A stretch of DNA of 40,560 bases from Selenomonadaceae bacterium (GTDB lineage Bacteria > Bacillota > Negativicutes > Selenomonadales > Selenomonadaceae): positions 1-40,560 of the forward strand of contig JAFVBP010000274.1 of NCBI GenBank assembly GCA_017479925.1, given 5' to 3'. The notes below the pieces were generated by a model, which was not told where the DNA came from, did no database searches, and saw only the letters and a program-made list of their open reading frames with translations. Position 1 is the first letter of the stretch. Each line of letters starts with the position of its first letter. The translations under genes were made by a program, and so were the position numbers. Positions 837 through 40,526 of this stretch are shown piece by piece.

Positions 837-1818
837 CAGCGTGCCGTTGAGTTCGGCGCGGGCGGCTTCCTTCCTTGGCAATGAATTCGAGTTCGGTGCC
901 TTTCGTCGCGCCGTGAAGACTGACTTTTTCCTTGAACACGGACGCAGGTTGACCGCAGACGGGACATTTTTCGGGCGGATTGTCGCCGACGTGTTCGTAG
1001 CCGCAGACGGAGCAAACCCAGCGTTTGCCTTCGGTTTTGGCAACTTCGGGCTTGTACTTGGCAATCAATTCGTCGATAACAACGCCGTGGTGCCATTCCT
1101 GTTCGGCGAAAACTTCAATTTCGTCAGCCGCAGAGTTAAAGCCCGCCGCACGAACGGCATCCGCAAGAGCTTTAATTTTCGTCTTGCCCGCGTATTCGGC
1201 TTTGGCGACACCCGCTACGAATTGCCAAAAGTCTTGCGGAACTTTGCCGCTCATTGTCGCGTAAAAGCCCGCGTGAACGGCTTCTTGATTGGCGGAGGCG
1301 ACGAAAGTTTTCGCGACTTCGGGCAAGCCCTGTTCGGTCGCAAGACGAGCCAGCGCGTAATACATCATGACGCCGTTCGCTTCGCCTTGAGCCAATGTCG
1401 CAATCGCCGTTTCAAGGTCGGTGCCGCGTGCCAAGCCGTAAACGCTTTCGGGCTTTTTGACGGACGCACTGCGATCAATTTTCGGGTACTCGAAGGCGTA
1501 ACCGACGCCGAAGTGAATCACCCATTCGGGCTTTTCGGGAATCGGAATCCAGTAGCCGTACGCCTTGCCGAAATTGCCTTCGTAGGTGCAAATTTGCGGC
1601 TCGCCCGTGTCGACGGCCTCGTTGCATTTACAACCGCGGTGATTTTCGGGCTTGCCGATTGACGAACATTTGACGCCCGGTTGAAGACCGAGTTCGGCGG
1701 CTTTCTTGTTGACGGCGACGATCTCGCGGCTTTTCTGCGTAATCGTCACGGCTTCGGGGAAGTTGTCCCACATCAGGTGAAATGCGCGGATAATGTCTTC
1801 GTTGCTCAAGCGAATCAC
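805..1818 (-). CDS. Cys-rich N-terminal domain of unknown function, plus rubrerythrin-like domain and rubredoxin module (upstream half of split gene)
   Basis: The 337-aa ORF contains MYYALARLATEQG...NQEAVHAGFY...AEQEWHHG followed by WVCSVCGYEHVGDNPPEKCPVCGQP. The start is GTG 1818, or TTG 1809 with AAGGGG 8 nt upstream. Confidence 0.7.
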   Translation of the reverse strand: MIRLSNEDIIRAFHLMWDNFPEAVTITQKSREIVAVNKKAAELGLQPGVKCSSIGKPENHRGCKCNEAVDTGEPQICTYEGNFGKAYGYWIPIPEKPEWVIHFGVGYAFEYPKIDRSASVKKPESVYGLARGTDLETAIATLAQGEANGVMMYYALARLATEQGLPEVAKTFVASANQEAVHAGFYATMSGKVPQDFWQFVAGVAKAEYAGKTKIKALADAVRAAGFNSAADEIEVFAEQEWHHGVVIDELIAKYKPEVAKTEGKRWVCSVCGYEHVGDNPPEKCPVCGQPASVFKEKVSLHGATKGTELEFIAKEGSRPRRTQRHADVLRIGTPCD

Positions 1819-2027
1819 CCCTTAAAATATAATACCTGTAAAAAATAACCTGCCGCGACGAATTTGGCAACGGTTTTGACGAAAAGTTTTACACTTCGCC
1901 GAAACTGTAAAGTACGCCGAAAGTTTCAGTTCGCGGCGACAAGTTTCGGTTTGCGGCGATAAACGAAGTCGACGCCGTTTCGGAAGTTGTCCAAGCAAAA
2001 TTGCATCGTCGCCGCCGTCGACGTCAT

Positions 2028-2062
2028 CATTACGCATTGCGCATTAAGCATTACGCATTAAA
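2028..2062 (+). repeat. heptad array family A (5 x CATTRMG), copy A1
   Basis: cattacg cattgcg cattaag cattacg cattaaa. Confidence 0.85.
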
Positions 2063-2090
2063 AAAACCCGTCGCGAAATTTGCAACGGGT
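2060..2090 (-). terminator. rho-independent terminator of ferritin-like gene
   Basis: Stem ACCCGT/ACGGGT is followed by a U7 run on the minus strand. Confidence 0.6.
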
Positions 2091-2106
2091 CGGGAAATTT
2101 TTTCTG

Positions 2107-2559
2107 TCAGAGCTGTTGAACGAGCCAATTCTGCTTGCCAATCATGTCGACGAGCGCAAGTTGTTGCTCCGTCCAATACATGTCGGATTCTTCGTCTTGA
2201 TAATACGTCTTCAGCAGGTCGAAAGTCGTCGGGTCGTCCTGCGCGGCACAAAGAACGTCCTTGAGCCAGGCAAGCCCGTGTTTGGAAACCTGCAAGTCGT
2301 GCTTGAGATATTCGACGACGTCCCAAATGACGGGCGCGGCGGACTTCGCTTCGAGCTTGACTTCGGCGTCCAAGTCAATCAAACGGTCAATGCATTTGAC
2401 GACGTAAGCGCGTTCCTCGGCGGCGTGCTCTTCGTATTGTTTGGCGAGTTTCGTCAAACCTTGCGCGGCGAAAATTCGCGATTGAATGACGTGACTGTCC
2501 GCCTGTTGAGCCAGCTCCGTGACGATCCTCTGAAGACCGTCGATAACTTTGTTGTCCAT
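2107..2559 (-). CDS. ferritin-like / bacterioferritin-family protein
   Basis: The 150-aa ORF has a C-terminus YYQDEESDMYWTEQQLALVDMIGKQNWLVQQ that resembles the bacterioferritin EEEHIDWLETQL..IG.QNYLQ motif. Confidence 0.65.
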   Translation of the reverse strand: MDNKVIDGLQRIVTELAQQADSHVIQSRIFAAQGLTKLAKQYEEHAAEERAYVVKCIDRLIDLDAEVKLEAKSAAPVIWDVVEYLKHDLQVSKHGLAWLKDVLCAAQDDPTTFDLLKTYYQDEESDMYWTEQQLALVDMIGKQNWLVQQL

Positions 2560-2711
2560 GAAAACACCTCCGCAAAAATTTCAATCGTTCGGGTCGGTCG
2601 CTTCAAAAGCGACGGAACAATTTGGCTGACACGCGACGAAATCTGGCCGACATGGATGTCGGCCGCCCGCAGTTGATACAGGATGTATCACCTGCGGGCT
2701 GTTTTCTTTTG

Positions 2712-2738
2712 GCAACGTGGACGTTGCATCCAATTTGG
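2712..2738 (+). repeat. P module hairpin (GCAACGTnnACGTTGC + ATCCAATTGG), copy P1
   Basis: Sequence is gcaacgtggacgttgcatccaatttgg, nested inside composite copy 1. Confidence 0.75.
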
Positions 2739-2771
2739 ACGACGTTGTCGCTTCGATTGACGAGACGGCAA

Positions 2772-2800
2772 CAAATTGTTCTCCCGCTTTCAAAGCGGGG
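2772..2800 (+). repeat. N module (AAATTGTTC + palindrome CGCTTTnAAAGCG), copy N1
   Basis: caaattgttctcccgctttcaaagcgggg. Confidence 0.75.
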
Positions 2801-2888
2801 CTTTTGCGCCAAAAGAAAAGTAGAGCATCCCGTCAATGCCGTAATCGCGCACGGGAACTTTTTTGATTATGTCGGGAAACATTTTCGC

Positions 2889-3468: not shown

Positions 3469-3496
3469 CAATTAGGAATTTGGAATTAGTAATTAT
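3469..3496 (+). repeat. heptad array family B (NAATTWG units), copy B1
   Basis: caattag gaatttg gaattag taattat. Confidence 0.75.
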
Positions 3497-3520
3497 CGCC
3501 GACTGCGACGAATCGGTTTG

Positions 3521-3549
3521 CCAAATTGTTCCCACGATTTTAAAGCGGG
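3521..3549 (+). repeat. N module, copy N2 (degenerate), followed by an M1 half-site
   Basis: Sequence is ccaaattgttcccacgattttaaagcggg, followed by ctttcgccggtgaaagaaagtag. Confidence 0.6.
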
Positions 3550-6056: not shown

Positions 6057-6091
6057 AATTGCGCATTACGCATTAAGCATTGCGCATTGAA
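6057..6091 (+). repeat. heptad array family A, copy A2
   Basis: aattgcg cattacg cattaag cattgcg cattgaa; abuts the tsf stop codon. Confidence 0.85.
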
Positions 6092-7048: not shown

Positions 7049-7078
7049 CTTGTCCCTTTTCCCGTGTCACTTGTCCCT
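7049..7078 (-). repeat. heptad array family C, copy C1-right (inverted relative to C1-left)
   Basis: cttgtcc cttttcc cgtgtca cttgtcc ct. Confidence 0.8.
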
Positions 7079-7892: not shown

Positions 7893-7927
7893 CTTGTCCC
7901 GTGTCCCGTGTCACTTGTCCCTTATCC
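7893..7927 (-). repeat. heptad array family C, copy C2 (inside the rpsB 5' leader)
   Basis: cttgtcc cgtgtcc cgtgtca cttgtcc cttatcc. Confidence 0.85.
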
Positions 7928-8518: not shown

Positions 8519-8702
8519 CTACTTTCTTTGACCGAGCAAAGAAAGTAGCAAAGAAACTCGCCACTGCGCGTGGAGCGGATACTCGTTCGCCGCCGAAATG
8601 TCCGCGTGCACACTTACCGCCTCGGCGTCGCATGATACATCCTGTATCATACGCGACGCGCGGCCGACATCCATGTCGGCCGGAATTTACGGTAACGGTC
8701 GG
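8519..8702 (+). repeat. composite three-hairpin element, copy 2 (with about 70-nt internal insert and M5 tail)
   Basis: Contains M1 ctactttctttgaccgagcaaagaaagtag, M3 gcgtcgc-atgataca-tcc-tgtatcat-acgcgacgc, M4 ggccgacatccatgtcggcc and tail ggaatttacggtaacggtcgg. Confidence 0.85.
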
Positions 8703-11083: not shown

Positions 11084-11118
11084 CATTGCGCATTACGCAT
11101 TCCGCATTACGCATTGCA
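11084..11118 (+). repeat. heptad array family A, copy A3
   Basis: cattgcg cattacg cattccg cattacg cattgca; the last unit overlaps the secA -35 box. Confidence 0.85.
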
Positions 11119-13832: not shown

Positions 13833-13878
13833 ATTTTCGTTACGGCTCAGCGACAACATTAAAGCGGCGAGCGGCTAA

Positions 13879-13908
13879 CCAAATTGTTCCGCCGCTTTTA
13901 AAGCGACC
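13879..13908 (+). repeat. N module, copy N3
   Basis: Sequence is ccaaattgttccgccgcttttaaagcgacc. The upstream aaagcggcg (13861-13869) pairs with cgccgcttt (13890-13898). Confidence 0.7.
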
Positions 13909-13938
13909 GGGCGTAACAAATAACGCGAGGTTTTCGTC

Positions 13939-14417: not shown

Positions 14418-14452
14418 CATTACGCATTACGCATTACGAATTACGCATTAAA
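14418..14452 (+). repeat. heptad array family A, copy A4
   Basis: cattacg cattacg cattacg aattacg cattaaa; overlaps the stop codon of the 14448..15098 gene. Confidence 0.85.
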
Positions 14453-15154: not shown

Positions 15155-15194
15155 CAATTCACATTCCTAATTCCTAATTCCAAATTCCAAATTG
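15155..15194 (-). repeat. heptad array family B, copy B2
   Basis: ...cacattc ctaattc ctaattc caaattc caaattg. Confidence 0.8.
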
Positions 15195-18298: not shown

Positions 18299-18331
18299 CC
18301 ATTTTTGCCGCGTGTGTTAATCGGCGGTTGT

Positions 18332-18435
18332 GTTACTTTCTTTCCGCGTGGAAAGAAAGTAACCAAAGAAAGACGCGCTTGCTACGATACATCCTGTATC
18401 GTGCGCAAGCGGTGCGGCCGTCATCCATGACGGCC
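18332..18435 (+). repeat. composite three-hairpin element, copy 3
   Basis: gttactttctttccgcgtggaaagaaagtaac caaagaaagacgcgc ttgc-t-acgataca-tcc-tgtatcgt-gc-gcaagc ggtgc ggccgtcatccatgacggcc. Confidence 0.9.
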
Positions 18436-20784: not shown

Positions 20785-20884
20785 GGCCGTCATGGATGAC
20801 GGCCGCCGCCCGCGCATGATACAGGATGTATCATAGCGGGCTGTTTTCTTTTGCTACTTTTCTTTTGCGCCAAAAGAAAAGTAG
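20785..20884 (-). repeat. composite three-hairpin element, copy 4 (inverted relative to copy 3)
   Basis: ggccgtcatggatgacggcc gcc gcccgc-gc-atgataca-gga-tgtatcat-a-gcgggc tgttttcttttg ctacttttcttttgcgccaaaagaaaagtag. Confidence 0.9.
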
Positions 20885-20892
20885 ATTCTCGC

Positions 20893-27031: not shown

Positions 27032-27255
27032 AAAAGTTGCCTCCTTGATTAGAGCGTGTTGGTAAACTCAAAATTACGATGTGACGAGGAATTTTTTCGA
27101 CTGACGAGGCGTCAGCGCGATAGCGTATAGAAATACGCTGAGCGCGTAACAACGAAGTCAGGCGGAAAAATAACCGTCACTTGTCGGATTTTACCAAAAG
27201 CCCCTAATTTGTACGCGAAATCCTACCACAGCACCTGTCGACGCGCAACTTAAAT

Positions 27256-27284
27256 TTGCGTTTTCGGGCGACGTTTGATATATT
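27256..27284 (+). promoter_or_regulatory. putative sigma70-type promoter for the GIY-YIG gene
   Basis: TTGCGT, a 17-nt spacer, then TATATT. Confidence 0.45.
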
Positions 27285-27320
27285 TTTCCGCGACGAAACT
27301 TTTTTGGCGGAGGCGACGAC

Positions 27321-29427: not shown

Positions 29428-29519
29428 GGAACGGTGGCCGAGTTGGTCTAAGGCGCACGCCTGGAAAGTGTGTACTCGCGAATAACGGGTCGGAGGTTCG
29501 AATCCTCTCCGTTCCGCCA
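29428..29519 (+). tRNA. tRNA-Ser (anticodon GGA), CCA encoded
   Basis: Acceptor stem GGAACGG/CCGTTCC, anticodon loop CTGGAAA, long variable arm and T-arm GGAGGTTCGAATCCTCT. Confidence 0.9.
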
Positions 29520-29715: not shown

Positions 29716-29877
29716 CAAAAATTTCCGTCACGGCGACAACGCGACACGTCTCAATCGAAGCAAACCGCGACGTTATCACAAAAAATTTCCGTCACACGAC
29801 AACGCGACACGTCTCAATCGAAGCAAACCGCGACGTTATCACAAAAATTTCCGTCACACGGCGGGGATTTTTTCGTT
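29716..29877 (+). repeat. 63-64-nt tandem duplication (2 full units plus a terminator-like partial unit)
   Basis: The unit caaaaatttccgtcac(a)cg(g)cgacaacgcgacacgtctcaatcgaagcaaaccgcgacgttatca occurs at 29716-29779 and 29779-29842. The third unit ends in the intact hairpin tccgtcacacggcgggga plus a T6 run. Confidence 0.85.
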
Positions 29878-31828: not shown

Positions 31829-31847
31829 GTTACTTTTAAAAAGTAAC
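31829..31847 (+). repeat. minimal M1-only hairpin of the composite element
   Basis: gttacttttaaaaagtaac followed by caaac; it begins 1 nt after the ybaB stop. Confidence 0.6.
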
Positions 31848-32537: not shown

Positions 32538-32572
32538 CAATTAGGAATTAGCAGTTAGGAATTTGGAATTGT
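32538..32572 (+). repeat. heptad array family B, copy B3
   Basis: caattag gaattag cagttag gaatttg gaattgt. Confidence 0.85.
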
Positions 32573-32595: not shown

Positions 32596-32631
32596 GCGAA
32601 AACATTGGATTCGTCGAAACGTCGCGGATGA
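32578..32631. repeat. 54-nt direct repeat, left copy
   Basis: tcggtcggcaatttttttgcgaaaacattggattcgtcgaaacgtcgcggatga. Confidence 0.9.
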
Positions 32632-32633
32632 CA

Positions 32634-32662
32634 CCAGTTGTTCCCCCGCTTTTAAAGCGGGC
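32634..32662 (+). repeat. N module, copy N5 (between the two direct repeats)
   Basis: ccagttgttcccccgcttttaaagcgggc. Confidence 0.75.
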
Positions 32663-32716
32663 GGTCGGCGATTTTTTTTTGCGAAAACGTCGAATTCGTC
32701 GAAACGTAGCGGATGA
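32661..32716. repeat. 56-nt direct repeat, right copy
   Basis: gcggtcggcgatttttttttgcgaaaacgtcgaattcgtcgaaacgtagcggatga. Confidence 0.9.
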
Positions 32717-32720
32717 AACT

Positions 32721-32743
32721 AATTGGATGCAACGTCACGTTGC
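32721..32743 (-). repeat. P module, copy P2 (inverted)
   Basis: aattggatgcaacgtcacgttgc. Confidence 0.7.
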
Positions 32744-34407: not shown

Positions 34408-34513
34408 GTTACTTTCTTTCGGCGTCGAAAGAAAGTAACCAAAGCAAGACGCGCCCGCTATGATGCATCCTGCATCATGCGACGGGCGGTTGCGGCCGTC
34501 ATCCATGACGGCC
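34408..34513 (+). repeat. composite three-hairpin element, copy 5
   Basis: gttactttctttcggcgtcgaaagaaagtaac caaagcaagacgc gcccg-ct-atgatgca-tcc-tgcatcat-gcga-cgggc ... ggccgtcatccatgacggcc. Confidence 0.9.
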
Positions 34514-34556: not shown

Positions 34557-34591
34557 AATTACGCATTACGAATTGCGCATTACGCATTGAA
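34557..34591 (+). repeat. heptad array family A, copy A5
   Basis: aattacg cattacg aattgcg cattacg cattgaa. Confidence 0.85.
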
Positions 34592-35488: not shown

Positions 35489-35659
35489 GTTACTTTCTTT
35501 CCGCGTGGAAAGAAAGTAACCAAAGAAAGACGCGCCTGCAATGAAACCATCACGGTTTCAACGCAGGCGGTTGGCCGTCATCCATGACGGCCTATTTTCG
35601 GCGACGCTTGTGTCGACATCTATGTCGACCGAATTTACGTTGCGATTGGAGGTAGCGTC
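35489..35659 (+). repeat. composite three-hairpin element, copy 6 (extra M4-like hairpin and M5 tail carrying SD)
   Basis: M1 starts 3 nt after the map stop. M3 is cctgc-a-atgaaacc-atcac-ggtttca-a-cgcagg and M4 is ggccgtcatccatgacggcc. An extra hairpin gtcgacatctatgtcgac follows, and the tail is gaatttacgttgcgattggaggtagcgtc. Confidence 0.9.
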
Positions 35660-35979: not shown

Positions 35980-36144
35980 GTTACTTTTCTTTTGGCGCAA
36001 AAGTTGCGGTTGATCTACTTTTCTTTTGGCGCAAAAGAAAAGTAGCAAAAGAAAACAGCCCGCTATGATACATCCTGTATCATGCGCGGGCGGCGGCCGT
36101 CATCCATGACGGCCGAAATTACCGTTGCGATTGGAGGTCGCGTC
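35980..36144 (+). repeat. composite three-hairpin element, copy 7 (partial M1, full M1-M4, and M5 tail carrying SD)
   Basis: gttacttttcttttggcgcaaaagttgc..., then ctacttttcttttggcgcaaaagaaaagtag caaaagaaaacagcc cgc-t-atgataca-tcc-tgtatcat-gcgcgggc ggccgtcatccatgacggcc gaaattaccgttgcgattggaggtcgcgtc. Confidence 0.9.
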
Positions 36145-36831
36145 ATGATTAAAGCTGTGGTACTTTCAAGCGGGGGCATTGATTCGACGACGTGCTTGGC
36201 GTTGGCGGTTGACAAATTCAGCGCGGACAACGTCGCAACTTTGTCGATTTTTTACGGGCAACGTCACTCCGCCGAACTTCAAGCTGCCCGTGCCGTCGCG
36301 AAATTTTACAACGTCGCGCATTACGAACTTGACGCCTCGGAAGTTTTTCGCAATTCGGATTCGGCTTTGCTGGACGCCTCAACCGCTCCGATTGAAAAAA
36401 GTTCTTACGCCGCGCAGATTCAAAAAAACAATTCGCCGCGTGTGTCGACGTACGTGCCTTTCCGCAACGGGCTGATGATTTCGATGGCGGCAAGTTTCGC
36501 GGACGCTTTGGGCGACGAAATTGATCTTTATGTCGGCGTGCACTCGGACGACGCGGCGGGCGCGGCTTACGCGGATTGCAGTGCTGATTTTATCGCGGCA
36601 ATGAACTCGGCGGTTTCAATCGGCACTTACGGCAAGATTAAAATCGTCGCGCCGTTCGTCGACAAAACGAAAGCCGAAGTCGTCAAAGTCGGGCTTGAAC
36701 TCGACGCGCCGTATCACCTGACGCGCAGCTGTTACGAACGCGGCGATACTCCTTGCGGACGTTGTGCCACCTGCATTGATCGTGCGAAAGCTTTTGAACT
36801 CAACGGCGTCAAAGATCCCGCGTTGACTTAA
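36145..36831 (+). CDS. queC: 7-cyano-7-deazaguanine synthase
   Basis: MIKAVVLSSGGIDSTTCLA...YGQRH..E...C..C..C..R motifs. Confidence 0.9.
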   Translation: MIKAVVLSSGGIDSTTCLALAVDKFSADNVATLSIFYGQRHSAELQAARAVAKFYNVAHYELDASEVFRNSDSALLDASTAPIEKSSYAAQIQKNNSPRVSTYVPFRNGLMISMAASFADALGDEIDLYVGVHSDDAAGAAYADCSADFIAAMNSAVSIGTYGKIKIVAPFVDKTKAEVVKVGLELDAPYHLTRSCYERGDTPCGRCATCIDRAKAFELNGVKDPALT

Positions 36832-36878
36832 AATCTGTTTGACGAAACGGTCGCGGCTGTCGGTGACGTTCGGATTGC

Positions 36879-36908
36879 ACAAATTGTTCTGTCGCTTTTA
36901 AAGCGACC
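36879..36908 (+). repeat. N module, copy N6
   Basis: cacaaattgttctgtcgcttttaaagcgacc, containing the 17-nt perfect palindrome gtcgcttttaaagcgac. Confidence 0.75.
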
Positions 36909-38793: not shown

Positions 38794-38819
38794 GCAACGT
38801 AGACGTTGCATCCAATTGG
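38794..38819 (+). repeat. P module, copy P3
   Basis: gcaacgtagacgttgcatccaattgg. Confidence 0.75.
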
Positions 38820-38850
38820 TGTGACCCGCAACGTTATCGTAATCAATCGG

Positions 38851-40368: not shown

Positions 40369-40498
40369 GTTACTTTTCTTTTGGCGCAAAAGAAAAGTAA
40401 CCAAAAGAAAACAGCCTGTGTATTTCGCATCACGCGAAATGGCACAGGCGGCGGCCGTCATCCATGACGGCCGGAATTACCGTTGCGGTCGGCGTCGT
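40369..40498 (+). repeat. composite three-hairpin element, copy 8 (with M5 tail)
   Basis: M1 gttacttttcttttggcgcaaaagaaaagtaac starts 3 nt after the stop. M3 is cctgtg-t-atttcgc-atcac-gcgaaat-gg-cacagg, M4 is ggccgtcatccatgacggcc and the tail is ggaattaccgttgcggtcggcgtcgt. Confidence 0.9.
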
Positions 40499-40526
40499 GC
40501 ACATTCCAAATTCCAAATTGCAGTTG
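40499..40526 (-). repeat. heptad array family B, copy B4
   Basis: gcacattc caaattc caaattg cagttg. Confidence 0.75.

Follow-up and report, generated by a model that had tools for sequence, protein, structure and literature searches.

The 104 bases at positions 18332-18435 of a contig from a Selenomonadaceae bacterium (JAFVBP010000274.1) are one copy of a real and very abundant intergenic repeat of rumen Selenomonadaceae, and this repeat is composed of two folding modules that are both found in unrelated bacterial phyla as well. The stretch analyzed, referred to below as the window, comprises 40,560 nt of this contig and derives from a metagenome scaffold (ENA ERZ28654209), and coordinates are positions within it. 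Module A is made up of an A/T-rich hairpin (M1), the purine tract that follows it and the next 4-6 nt, while Module B is made up of a two-tier hairpin (M3) and a short hairpin (M4). Our preferred reading, which we hold tentatively and at a little short of an even chance, is that the element is a mosaic repeat related to miniature inverted-repeat transposable elements (MITEs), that it would be co-transcribed within 3' and intercistronic spacers, and that it would work as a folded single strand in the manner of repetitive extragenic palindromes (REPs) and bacterial interspersed mosaic elements (BIMEs). We rank a DNA-level role second, a sense-strand RNA resembling the Bacillaceae-1 motif third and an RNA of the complementary strand fourth.

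Structure, abundance and covariation of the repeat

The copy at 18332-18435 lies on the + strand and begins with M1 (18332-18363), which has the 5' arm GTTAC-TTTCTTT-CC, the loop GCGT and the 3' arm GG-AAAGAAA-GTAAC. M1 is followed by the purine tract C-AAAGAAA-G (18364-18372), which is the reverse of the tract in the M1 3' arm, and then by ACGCG (18373-18377), which pairs with CGCGT of the M1 apical loop (18346-18350) to give pseudoknot stem S2. M3 (18375-18413) has the outer stem GCGCTTGC/GCAAGCG, the inner stem ACGATACA/TGTATCGT and the apical loop C-AUCCU-G, and M4 (18416-18435; GGCCGTCATCCATGACGGCC) has an 8-bp stem and a UCCA loop and is near-invariant across genera. The composition of 85 anchored copies further defines a G/T-rich leader of about 10 nt before M1 (GGCGGTTGT-type; 18322-18331, + strand), in which positions -14 to -8 are approximately 50% T and 30% G, with A and C below 10% each; the leader shows no fixed target sequence and no target-site duplication (TSD). 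M4 is followed by a semi-conserved tail; a tail had been listed as optional in the sequence-only reading of the window in which the element was noticed.

That reading had described the element as modular, dispersed and intergenic, with eight full copies in the window. Our analysis supports this description, and all eight copies are located where they had been placed, giving a density of approximately one copy per 5 kb. M4 (GGCCGWCATCCATGWCGGCC) occurs eight times in the window, and a match was found in 0 of 100 dinucleotide-preserving shuffles. With one genome per species, the M4 string was detected at 101 loci at least, nearly all of them in metagenome-assembled genomes (MAGs) of rumen Selenomonadaceae or Selenomonadales. 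Searching 0.75 Mb of these Selenomonad loci with a covariance model, which had been proposed as a check on the family, yielded approximately 70 copies of the short form and 45 of the long form. Each short copy is predicted to fold into three hairpins with energies of -51 to -59 kcal/mol (z = -7.7 to -10.3), and the opposite strand is almost as stable.

Covariation was counted on 49 distinct short Selenomonad copies, using a structure written by hand for this analysis. Paired cells amounted to 91.4%, compared with 83.2% in shuffles (0 of 500 reached the observed value) and 36-48% when the partners were slid, and changes on both sides were present at 22 pairs, including 12 of the 13 M3 pairs and all four S2 pairs. 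These data bear out the earlier claim that the helices are kept by paired substitutions. M4 was invariant apart from one T/A to A/T swap; this swap had already been seen within the window and is the sole M4 variation among the 49 copies. RNAalifold applied to a MAFFT alignment of the long forms recovered only M4, the alignment being too poor.

A mirror rule and a loop-pairing rule define Module A

The purine-rich segment between M1 and M3 had been regarded as a linker, and that view is wrong if a passive linker is meant: no other part of the element is as constrained or as informative. This segment is the mirror image of the purine tract in the M1 3' arm, which makes it the parallel complement of the 5' arm. 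The mirror form is present in 20 of 20 asymmetric Selenomonad copies and the direct repeat in 0 of 20. The asymmetric tract sets that obey the rule are TTTCTTTT/AAAAGAAA/AAAGAAAA, TTTTCTTT/AAAGAAAA/AAAAGAAA, TTTTTCTTT/…/AAAAAGAAA and TTTCTTTTTT/…/AAAGAAAAAA, and long-form copies add variants with two Gs or a shifted G (TTTCTCTTT/AAAGAGAAA/AAAGAGAAA and TTTCTTCC/GGAAGAAA/AAAGAAG). In an unbiased metagenome scan, only the asymmetric hairpin ACTTTCTTTT-N4-12-AAAAGAAAGT was fixed and the 3' flank was left free; the mirror tract AAAGAAAA was present within 16 nt on one strand at 89 of 120 loci from soil, marine, freshwater, bioreactor and gut samples, and the direct form AAAAGAAA at none of the 120.

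A second rule concerns the M1 loop, whose last 4-6 bases form Watson-Crick pairs with the bases that immediately follow the mirror tract. Selenomonads have 12 or more loop/partner combinations, among them GCGT/ACGC, GCAG/CTGC, GCGG/CCGC, CGAG/CTCG, CGAA/TTCG, CGGC/GCCG, TGCCC/GGGCA and TGTCC/GGACA, and no permutation reached the observed pairing (0 of 2000). The loop also co-varies with the post-tract bases in dozens of combinations at the metagenome loci. Only three complementary bases are left in a subfamily with GGCGC in the loop and CAGCC as its partner, to which the window copies at 20785, 36014 and 40369 belong. The basal pairs of M1 co-vary as well (GTTAC/GTAAC, CTAC/GTAG, CAAC/GTTG and CTTC/GAAG).

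Together, these rules give a topology in which stem 1 (10-14 bp, A/T-rich, with a pyrimidine tract on one arm) is followed by a loop 1 of about 3 nt, a stem 2 of 4-6 bp, a loop 2 of 0 nt and a loop 3 consisting of a 3-5-nt turn plus the mirror tract. By this topology, Module A is predicted to be a textbook H-type pseudoknot with triplex geometry. The mirror relation of a purine tract to a purine arm is what the third strand of a triple helix requires, and a structural constraint is the economical explanation for the mirror rule because, to our knowledge, no copying mechanism produces a reversed, non-complementary repeat.

One possibility is that the element has no selected function and is a selfish or neutral palindromic repeat, whose apparently compensatory changes would be the product of gene conversion among copies and of template switching that corrects quasi-palindromes. 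Stems that are perfectly Watson-Crick paired and contain hardly any wobbles fit such a repeat, as do identical copies 15 kb apart, the replacement of one subtype by another at an orthologous site and the existence of mosaic and truncated copies (all described below). Template switching, however, makes inverted repeats and not mirror copies; the mirror rule extends across phyla and at least six tract variants, and conservation across genera extends to M4 and to the RUCCU and UCCA loops, with flanks that have diverged to 83-88% identity. We consider the absence of a selected function very unlikely.

On the strand given here the third strand would be purine-rich. Triplexes of the purine motif (G·G-C, A·A-T) are well established in DNA but have little support in RNA. 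On the complementary strand, the order of pyrimidine tract, turn, pyrimidine arm, loop and purine arm would correspond to the classical U·A-U/C+·G-C major-groove triplex arrangement, in which the pyrimidine tract would be loop 1, lying in the deep groove of the long stem and forming U·A-U triples and one C+·G-C. Module A resembles the triple-helix pseudoknots of telomerase RNA, SAM-II and preQ1 and the element for nuclear expression (ENE) of MALAT1 in having a stem, a loop that pairs downstream and a homopurine or homopyrimidine strand along an A-U-rich stem, and the likeness would go further on the complementary strand, where a U-rich loop 1 would face the deep groove with its single C opposite a G-C pair. 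It differs from them in being part of a dispersed repeat present in hundreds of copies, whereas theirs are single-copy regulatory RNAs, in having no sequence or Rfam relationship to them and in having a fold that is predicted from sequence alone.

Module A may be a 45-55-nt hairpin-pseudoknot found across phyla, a bacterial triple-helix knot that is previously undescribed, carried on MITE-like repeats and recognized by a conserved cellular partner, a proposal that we consider on balance unlikely. In such a knot the third strand would read the long A·T/U stem base by base, and the chemistry of the complementary strand would match that of the U·A-U/C+·G-C stacks in telomerase RNA, SAM-II and the MALAT1/PAN ENE. 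If it formed in RNA at transcript 3' ends, Module A would be the first bacterial ENE-like triple-helix element for 3'-end protection, and the proposal would also link two Rfam motifs discussed below, Bacillaceae-1 and TwoAYGGAY, as two strands of one class. The mirror and loop-pairing rules amount to unusually clean comparative evidence for a tertiary (triplex or pseudoknot) interaction in a widespread, testable motif. Compared against Rfam 15 and against Weinberg et al. 2010 (PMC2864571) with its supplements, Module A appears to be undescribed.

Module A is present in unrelated phyla

BLAST searches with the first 41-49 nt of the element against plasmids and chromids detected Module A in Caballeronia, Burkholderia and Paraburkholderia (at least 40 places per replicon), Ralstonia (134 records), Variovorax, Pseudoalteromonas and Ilyobacter (Fusobacteriota), and it was never annotated in these matches. 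Module A is also present in many environmental metagenomes; no matches were obtained in 5,426 E. coli genomes, phages or viral contigs. The loop-pairing rule holds in Burkholderiaceae (GCTG/CAGC) and in Ilyobacter (TGCC/GGCA), where Module A heads a discrete 170-nt unit. At the base of M1, only ACT/AGT is conserved outside Selenomonads.

Several further observations were made in these and other lineages. The Rfam family Bp1_684, a Burkholderia small RNA (sRNA) candidate predicted by SIPHT, matched two loci at 30-37 bits (gathering score 44), L102 and L103 at 1406-1511(-) and L103 also at 1995-2109(+). On both loci the match at 1406-1511 covers the leader and a GC hairpin before the Burkholderiaceae Module A, on the opposite strand, and the predicted sRNA may possibly be part of the Module A repeat. 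Another motif, Burkholderiales-1, is described as multi-copy, with 33 copies in Polaromonas JS666 and doubtful status as an RNA (PMC2864571 supplement). A separate gamma-proteobacterial repeat in the Steroidobacteraceae MAG JBEVDW01 (L041, L047, L096 and L100) has GGCCGACATCCATGTCGGCC beside a GTGAATACATCCCTGTAC hairpin, which is the same CATCC-apex hairpin pair in yet another lineage. On metagenome contig L216, only 3 nt separate a Module A copy from the CCA end of the tRNA gene before it; another copy is close by, and the two may mark the ends of an integrated element.

Placement of the repeat relative to genes

With genes called by a codon-usage model, the short-form copies comprise 30 in tandem sense, 14 in tandem antisense, 10 in convergent and 1 in divergent position, and the two forms together give 41 sense and 20 antisense copies (p = 0.01). 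In many sense copies M1 begins about 0-10 nt after a stop codon, and the gene that M4 faces has its stop 0-20 nt away. The window conforms to this pattern, in that the stop codons of ybaB, map and the DUF445 gene are each followed by M1 at a distance of 0-2 nt, three junctions that had been singled out before. Many sense copies are followed, 11-50 nt after M4, by a ribosome-binding site (RBS) and ATG. The interval is in many cases within 25-40 nt, too short to accommodate a promoter, and such copies would be co-transcribed with the downstream gene. The element fills a large share of 3' and intercistronic spacers in rumen Selenomonadaceae, and it likely matters for operon expression, for MAG assembly and binning, and for recombination-driven gain and loss of genes.

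The element does not appear to be simply the terminator of this lineage, since canonical intrinsic terminators are present elsewhere in the window. M4 is followed only by a weak U-run, and a terminator scan passed only the copy at 35573-35592. On the complementary strand (denoted by primes), M3' or P2', the complement of a variable module specific to long-form copies, is followed by UUUCUUU tracts, and the P2' hairpin of the copy at 8519 was flagged by the terminator scan. If antisense copies were terminators, they would be expected to lie farther from the next start codon; this was not supported, the medians being 82 versus 64 nt (p = 0.5). A preQ1 riboswitch upstream of queC was also considered and rejected, as the same element flanks unrelated genes and there is no Rfam PreQ1 match.

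Within the window the orientation of the element flips with gene direction, which tracks transcription and not replication. GC skew is flat and uninformative, and a replication-strand explanation, though conceivable, is unsupported. The switch in gene orientation from mostly minus to mostly plus occurs at about 27,050-27,320, between genes for aspartate-semialdehyde dehydrogenase and a DUF4357 protein, and coincides with a change in the sign of AT skew; no dnaA gene was seen there.

Module B resembles two orphan Rfam motifs

In Module B the loops are conserved and the M3 inner stems are hypervariable, with more than 20 versions. Approximately two-thirds of M3 loops are C-AUCCU-G or similar (xUCCx) and about 30% are C-AUCAC-G, and the end of M4 is always CA-UCCA-UG. 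The same pair, in which a C(A/U)UCC(C)UG hairpin precedes one with CAUCCAUG, is also located 3' of Module A in unrelated metagenomes and in Pseudoalteromonas. The association of the two modules is partial, though significant: among 66 metagenomic copies, a TCC-apex hairpin follows Module A in 20 and a GGA-apex hairpin in 8 (p = 0.018), and a TCC-apex hairpin lies upstream of Module A in 9 (p = 0.034).

At gathering thresholds, Rfam recognizes only RNase P RNA and a tRNA in the whole window, and permissive scans, which covered 2 kb, Burkholderia loci and 10 loci from metagenomes, returned nothing relevant except the sub-threshold Bp1_684 matches on flanks. The sequence-only reading had recognized no known family in the element, which remains correct in that no Rfam family reaches its threshold for it; the statement has to be qualified by sub-threshold likeness to Bacillaceae-1 and TwoAYGGAY, exposed only with very short inputs, and by metagenome relatives that are bona fide MITEs.

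The segment comprising the mirror tract, M3 and M4 scored 21.5 bits against Bacillaceae-1 (RF01690; gathering score 35), with E = 0.037 when 151 nt were searched. The match spans the entire model (1-67 of 67; window 18366-18433, + strand) and aligns M3 to hairpin 1 and M4 to hairpin 2. Both of the RUCCU loops that distinguish Bacillaceae-1 have counterparts, in the M3 loop C-AUCCU-G of the 18332-18435 copy and in the M4 apex CAUCCAUG. Bacillaceae-1 is an orphan motif found in many gene contexts whose two RUCCU loops were described as "suggestive of binding to a homodimeric protein" (PMC2864571 supplement), and its discoverers rate it as certainly RNA (PMC2864571). Like our element, it has an A-rich leader followed by two hairpins with RUCCU-type loops, the first of them two-tiered. 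It differs in having been described only in Bacillaceae, as a presumed trans-acting sRNA and not as a high-copy dispersed repeat; the score is below threshold, and the published flanks contain no M1/mirror-tract module.

These resemblances raise the possibility that the element functions as a sense-strand RNA of the Bacillaceae-1 kind, in which RUCCU and UCCA loops would bind a homodimeric protein or would pair with Shine-Dalgarno-like AGGA, as in the C-rich-loop pairing of firmicute sRNAs, and would regulate the translation or stability of adjacent cistrons in cis; Module A would then be an H-type pseudoknot with its A-rich strand along the long stem. The full-length alignment to a motif rated certain to be RNA, with loops that suggest a homodimeric protein, argues for such an RNA even though it scores 21.5 bits and not 35, and the 2:1 excess of sense copies, with M1 close after stops and an RBS and ATG 11-50 nt after M4, points the same way, although one third of the copies between tandem genes are antisense. 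The preference for TCC over GGA apexes after Module A (20 versus 8 of 66) is likewise favorable, but approximately 30% of M3 loops are AUCAC and not UCC, and the strand given here shows no excess of G·U pairs. Moreover, the A-rich loop 3 of a canonical H-type pseudoknot would lie in the minor groove, where base identity would not be read, leaving the strict mirror placement of G unexplained. We judge a function of this kind improbable.

On the complementary strand, M4' and M3' matched TwoAYGGAY (RF01731; gathering score 43) at 24-29 bits, with 24.0-26.6 bits at window 8625-8682(-) and 29.4 bits at L151 1241-1312(-), and only positions of approximately 43-121 of 168 were matched. The M4' loop AUGGAU fits AYGGAY and aligns to hairpin 1 of TwoAYGGAY, and the M3' loops AGGAU or GUGAU are not an exact fit. 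TwoAYGGAY is also an orphan, with a closing stem P1 that is "often very large (e.g., 24 base pairs)" (PMC2864571 supplement), a size that fits inverted transposon ends such as those of the 330-bp MITE lineage described below. M4' and M3' correspond one-to-one to its two AYGGAY-loop hairpins, it occurs in gut metagenomes, Clostridia and gamma-proteobacteria, and its long P1 (up to 24 bp) is comparable to the 15-bp inverted ends that close the 330-bp metagenomic units. The Selenomonad copies differ in lacking a closing P1, the model match is partial, the M3' loops are AGGAU or GUGAU instead of AYGGAY, and no triplex-type module has been described for TwoAYGGAY. Module A is absent from the flanks of the published Bacillaceae-1 and TwoAYGGAY alignments. 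Together, the two likenesses suggest that two Rfam motifs that have been orphans since 2010 are part of a broader class of mosaic elements that are mobile, and they may perhaps be two strands of one thing.

A functional RNA might accordingly be sought on the complementary strand, where the GGA/AYGGAY hairpins M4' and M3' (TwoAYGGAY-like, CsrA-type) would be followed by a 3'-terminal triple-helix pseudoknot sequestering an A-rich 3' arm, as a telomerase/SAM-II-like fold or an ENE-like protected 3' end. This is the only canonical topology in which Hoogsteen pairing would explain a base-specific mirror rule. The RF01731 matches align hairpin for hairpin, but at 24-29 bits against 43 and over model positions 49-107 of 168 only; the loops CA-UGGA-UG and C-AGGAU-G resemble the CsrA consensus, while the GUGAU loops (30% of M3') contain no GGA. 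The GC-rich M3' followed by U-rich tracts is terminator-like and the P2' hairpin of the copy at 8519 was flagged as such, yet the spacing predicted for antisense terminators was not supported (82 versus 64 nt, p = 0.5). Two thirds of tandem-gene copies would then be antisense to the flanking genes and would need promoters of their own, of which none is evident, and G·U pairs are not in excess on this strand either. We regard an RNA of this strand as slightly less probable again than one of the sense strand.

Covariation does not distinguish between folded RNA and folded DNA

Covariation had been taken to imply selection on a folded RNA or on single-stranded DNA (ssDNA). The helices are indeed kept, but covariation alone is not proof of selection on RNA, because both strands fold equally well, G·U and A·C deviations are similarly few in three data sets, and both orientations occur. 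Of 94 copies, 48 fold better in the sense and 46 in the antisense direction, and G·U accounts for approximately 4% of pairs on either strand (164 versus 145 of about 4,000). In the MITE subgroup, 46 G·T and 51 A·C deviations from the consensus pairs were found together with 84 fully compensated changes. This symmetry fits folded ssDNA or selection on both transcripts, and folded ssDNA, use of both strands and palindrome-correcting replication errors are all possible sources of the covariation. The combination of conserved loops with covarying stems requires some single-stranded form.

Relationship to mobile elements and probable recombination among copies

In one metagenomic subgroup, Module A is contained within a unit of approximately 330 bp that has 15-bp terminal inverted repeats (TIRs; CTGATGTTACGCAGT/ACTGCGTAACATCAG) and is flanked by 8-bp TSDs (TAAATTAA in L148, TTATGAGT in L203 and TTAATC in L117). 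Because of its inverted ends and TSDs, this unit is a genuine MITE. The mismatches within its TIRs are not all G·T. Module A is located approximately 110 bp inside the unit and not at its ends, and the TIR-bearing unit had no match in plasmids or chromids. Across 94 metagenomic loci no protein gene recurs next to the repeat, with only spurious open reading frames through the repeat and a chance ABC transporter found, and the 18 window proteins searched in Pfam include no transposase.

Comparison with the syntenic locus of MAG bin.34 (L045; 83-95% identity to the window) revealed several differences. At the site upstream of map, L045 carries a different subtype of the element, in which loop and partner have changed together. 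Only the window has the grx gene with one element copy, flanked by two copies; L045 lacks the stretch from grx to the copy at 35980-36144. This subtype swap and the grx-element indel point to recombination or conversion among copies, with the grx cassette as an example of gene gain or loss by this route. A repeat finder also identified an inverted pair of 102 nt that is 100% identical and approximately 15 kb apart (20785-20886 and 36013-36114). At 3440-3900 of L045, upstream of the map-proximal element, there is a tandem duplication of about 200 bp (three partial units) that is absent from the window.

Our element shares with REP/BIME, enterobacterial repetitive intergenic consensus (ERIC) and Correia elements and with MITEs a high copy number, a lack of coding capacity, the ability to form hairpins, a mosaic of modules and occurrence in both orientations, as well as a placement after stops between tandem or convergent genes and only rarely between divergent genes. 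With MITEs it further shares a lineage that has TIRs and 8-bp TSDs, whereas the Selenomonad copies have neither. It has no sequence similarity or Rfam match to REP/BIME, ERIC or Correia elements, for which no pseudoknot/mirror module is known, and whose copies are near-identical; in the Selenomonad element the stems are hypervariable and the loops conserved. The GTAG/GTGG tetranucleotide that heads the imperfect palindromes of REPs (20-40 nt) was not found, as the base of M1 is variable (GTTAC, CTAC, CAAC, CTTAC or CTTCC) and M4 has no GTAG head, and the 18 window proteins searched include no REP-associated transposase (RAYT). An integron attC site was considered and rejected: the M1 ends GTTAC...GTAAC put GTT outermost, opposite to the arrangement of the attC core sites R''(RYYYAAC)...R'(GTTRRRY), the flanking genes are housekeeping genes (map, queC, fabD and dnaX/ybaB), and no integrase was seen.

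The element could instead act purely at the level of DNA, any effects on RNA being incidental, which we consider doubtful but the strongest competitor of the preferred reading. ssDNA hairpins or intramolecular triplexes, or cruciforms and H-DNA, would serve as sites for a transposase, a recombinase or nucleoid proteins; ssDNA would arise on the lagging-strand template or in transposition or conjugation intermediates, cruciforms and H-DNA under supercoiling, and M4, a perfect and invariant 9+9-bp palindrome, would be a putative protein site. Module A resembles H-DNA in its homopurine mirror repeat with a short spacer (AAAGAAAG-TAACC-AAAGAAAG) and a pyrimidine tract on the same strand, so that a Y-R-R or Y-Y-R fold-back would be possible, and homopurine mirror repeats are the classical signature of H-DNA and triplexes; however, its tracts of 7-9 bp are short for H-DNA, and generic H-DNA tracts have neither the linkage to a loop-pairing stem nor the cross-phylum sequence conservation that those of Module A show. 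Maintenance of Watson-Crick pairing on both strands, with equal and rare G·T and A·C deviations, agrees with a role in DNA, as do the cassette-like indel between copies and the invariance of M4 while M3 covaries. That the relatives are cut-and-paste MITEs is set against the lack of TIRs and TSDs in Selenomonad copies, the internal position of Module A in the MITE lineage (about 110 bp from the ends, and not an obvious binding site for a transposase) and the lack of a recurrent neighboring protein gene in the 94 metagenomic loci. Similarly, both gene orientations occur, but orientation is biased to the gene strand (p = 0.01) and flips with gene direction in the window.

According to the preferred reading, that of a MITE-related repeat in transcribed spacers, the element would have been assembled from two portable modules that fold in single-stranded form. 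The Selenomonad copies would descend from mobile DNA and would now spread or be homogenized mainly by recombination or gene conversion. Judging from the RBS/ATG spacing, the copies would be co-transcribed with flanking genes, and by analogy with REP/BIME, ERIC and Correia elements the folded modules would resist nucleases, bind proteins and thus delimit and stabilize neighboring cistrons. Module B would contribute a hairpin pair presenting RUCCU and AUCCAU loops, equivalent to Bacillaceae-1 on the strand given here and to TwoAYGGAY on the complementary strand. Selection would act on both strands or on ssDNA, which would explain strict Watson-Crick conservation without wobble bias.

Several observations weigh against this reading. 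Own mobility is not apparent in the Selenomonads: neither TIRs nor TSDs were found for the window or other Selenomonad copies, no empty sites were present among 284 homologous locus pairs, and no candidate for a mobilizing enzyme was identified, though whole genomes were not scanned for one. The near-identity of Module A across phyla (ACTTTCTTT...AAAGAAAGT...AAAGAAA) suggests a specific conserved partner, which a role as a structured spacer fails to explain. RUCCU hairpins come after Module A in no more than 20 of 66 metagenomic copies, so the modules are separable and their functions may differ. Should function reside in the mRNA strand, the mirror rule would have to be explained in some other way, given the poor support for purine-motif triplexes in RNA, and counts of G·U and A·C that are equal and low are not typical of functional RNAs. 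Finally, both co-transcription and an effect on RNA stability are inferred.

Copies of the element in the window

The eight full copies differ in form and context. The copy at 2645-2823(-) is a composite in which the 5' half of M1 is followed by approximately 92 nt of a different dispersed repeat, the linker, M3 and M4 (GACAT variant); its M1 breaks after CAAAAG, where the other repeat is fused in, and the same fusion recurs in L001, L072 and L090. The copy at 8519-8702(+), downstream of the rnpB terminator, is of the long form that dominates in other Selenomonadaceae genera and contains M1, linker, CTCG pairing with loop CGAG, a P2/variable module (about 65 nt extra), M3, M4 of the GACAT variant and the tail. 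Short-form copies are located at 20785-20886(-), between fabD and a tetratricopeptide repeat (TPR) gene and co-oriented with both; at 34408-34513(+), upstream of map; and at 35489-35659(+), where the copy begins 2 nt after the map stop and continues through a second, degenerate M4 into a tail ending in the RBS/ATG of grx. At 35980-36144(+), a truncated M1, broken at the same CAAAAG as in the 2645-2823(-) copy, precedes a full short-form copy with a tail that ends in the RBS/ATG of queC. The last copy, at 40369-40498(+), is a short form with a tail, begins 2 nt after the stop of the DUF445 gene and is followed by a heptamer array. A ninth, M1-only copy had been proposed at 31829-31847; it is merely a 9-bp palindrome with a weak A-rich tail, and its membership in the family is doubtful.

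Other repeats in the window

Eleven intergenic tandem arrays of heptamers (CATTACG, ATTGCGC, AATTAGG, ATTCCAA, CTTGTCC or TGTCCCG, approximately 4.5 units each) are present at 2028-2060, 3470-3495, 6058-6089, 7049-7078, 7895-7921, 11084-11115, 14418-14450, 15163-15193, 32539-32570, 34558-34588 and 40503-40519. Most lie just upstream of start codons, and several directly follow a copy of the hairpin element. L045 has no array at the site orthologous to the one before map, beside the copy at 34408. Arrays of a similar kind come after M4 in further MAGs (L031 and L077), and in Ralstonia (L107) an array of an 11-mer, (GGGTTGGTATT)n, abuts Module A.

A second dispersed family, which we call Element B, consists of a CCCGCTTT-GAAA-GCGGG-type hairpin plus CCAAATTGTTC and includes a GCAACG-TCCA-CGTTGC hairpin with the same UCCA apex as M4. 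It occurs at 2595-2625, 2700-2797, 3514-3547, 13872-13909, 32626-32659, 32703-32736, 36830-36908 and 38802-38835. One copy is fused into M1 of the hairpin element copy at 2645-2823, and L045 cleanly lacks another copy, the 81-nt one that lies upstream of rpsO (36830-36907). In addition, a 63-nt tandem repeat (2.3 copies, 95% identical) is located at 29716-29860, between the tRNA-Ser(GGA) gene (29428-29519) and dnaX.

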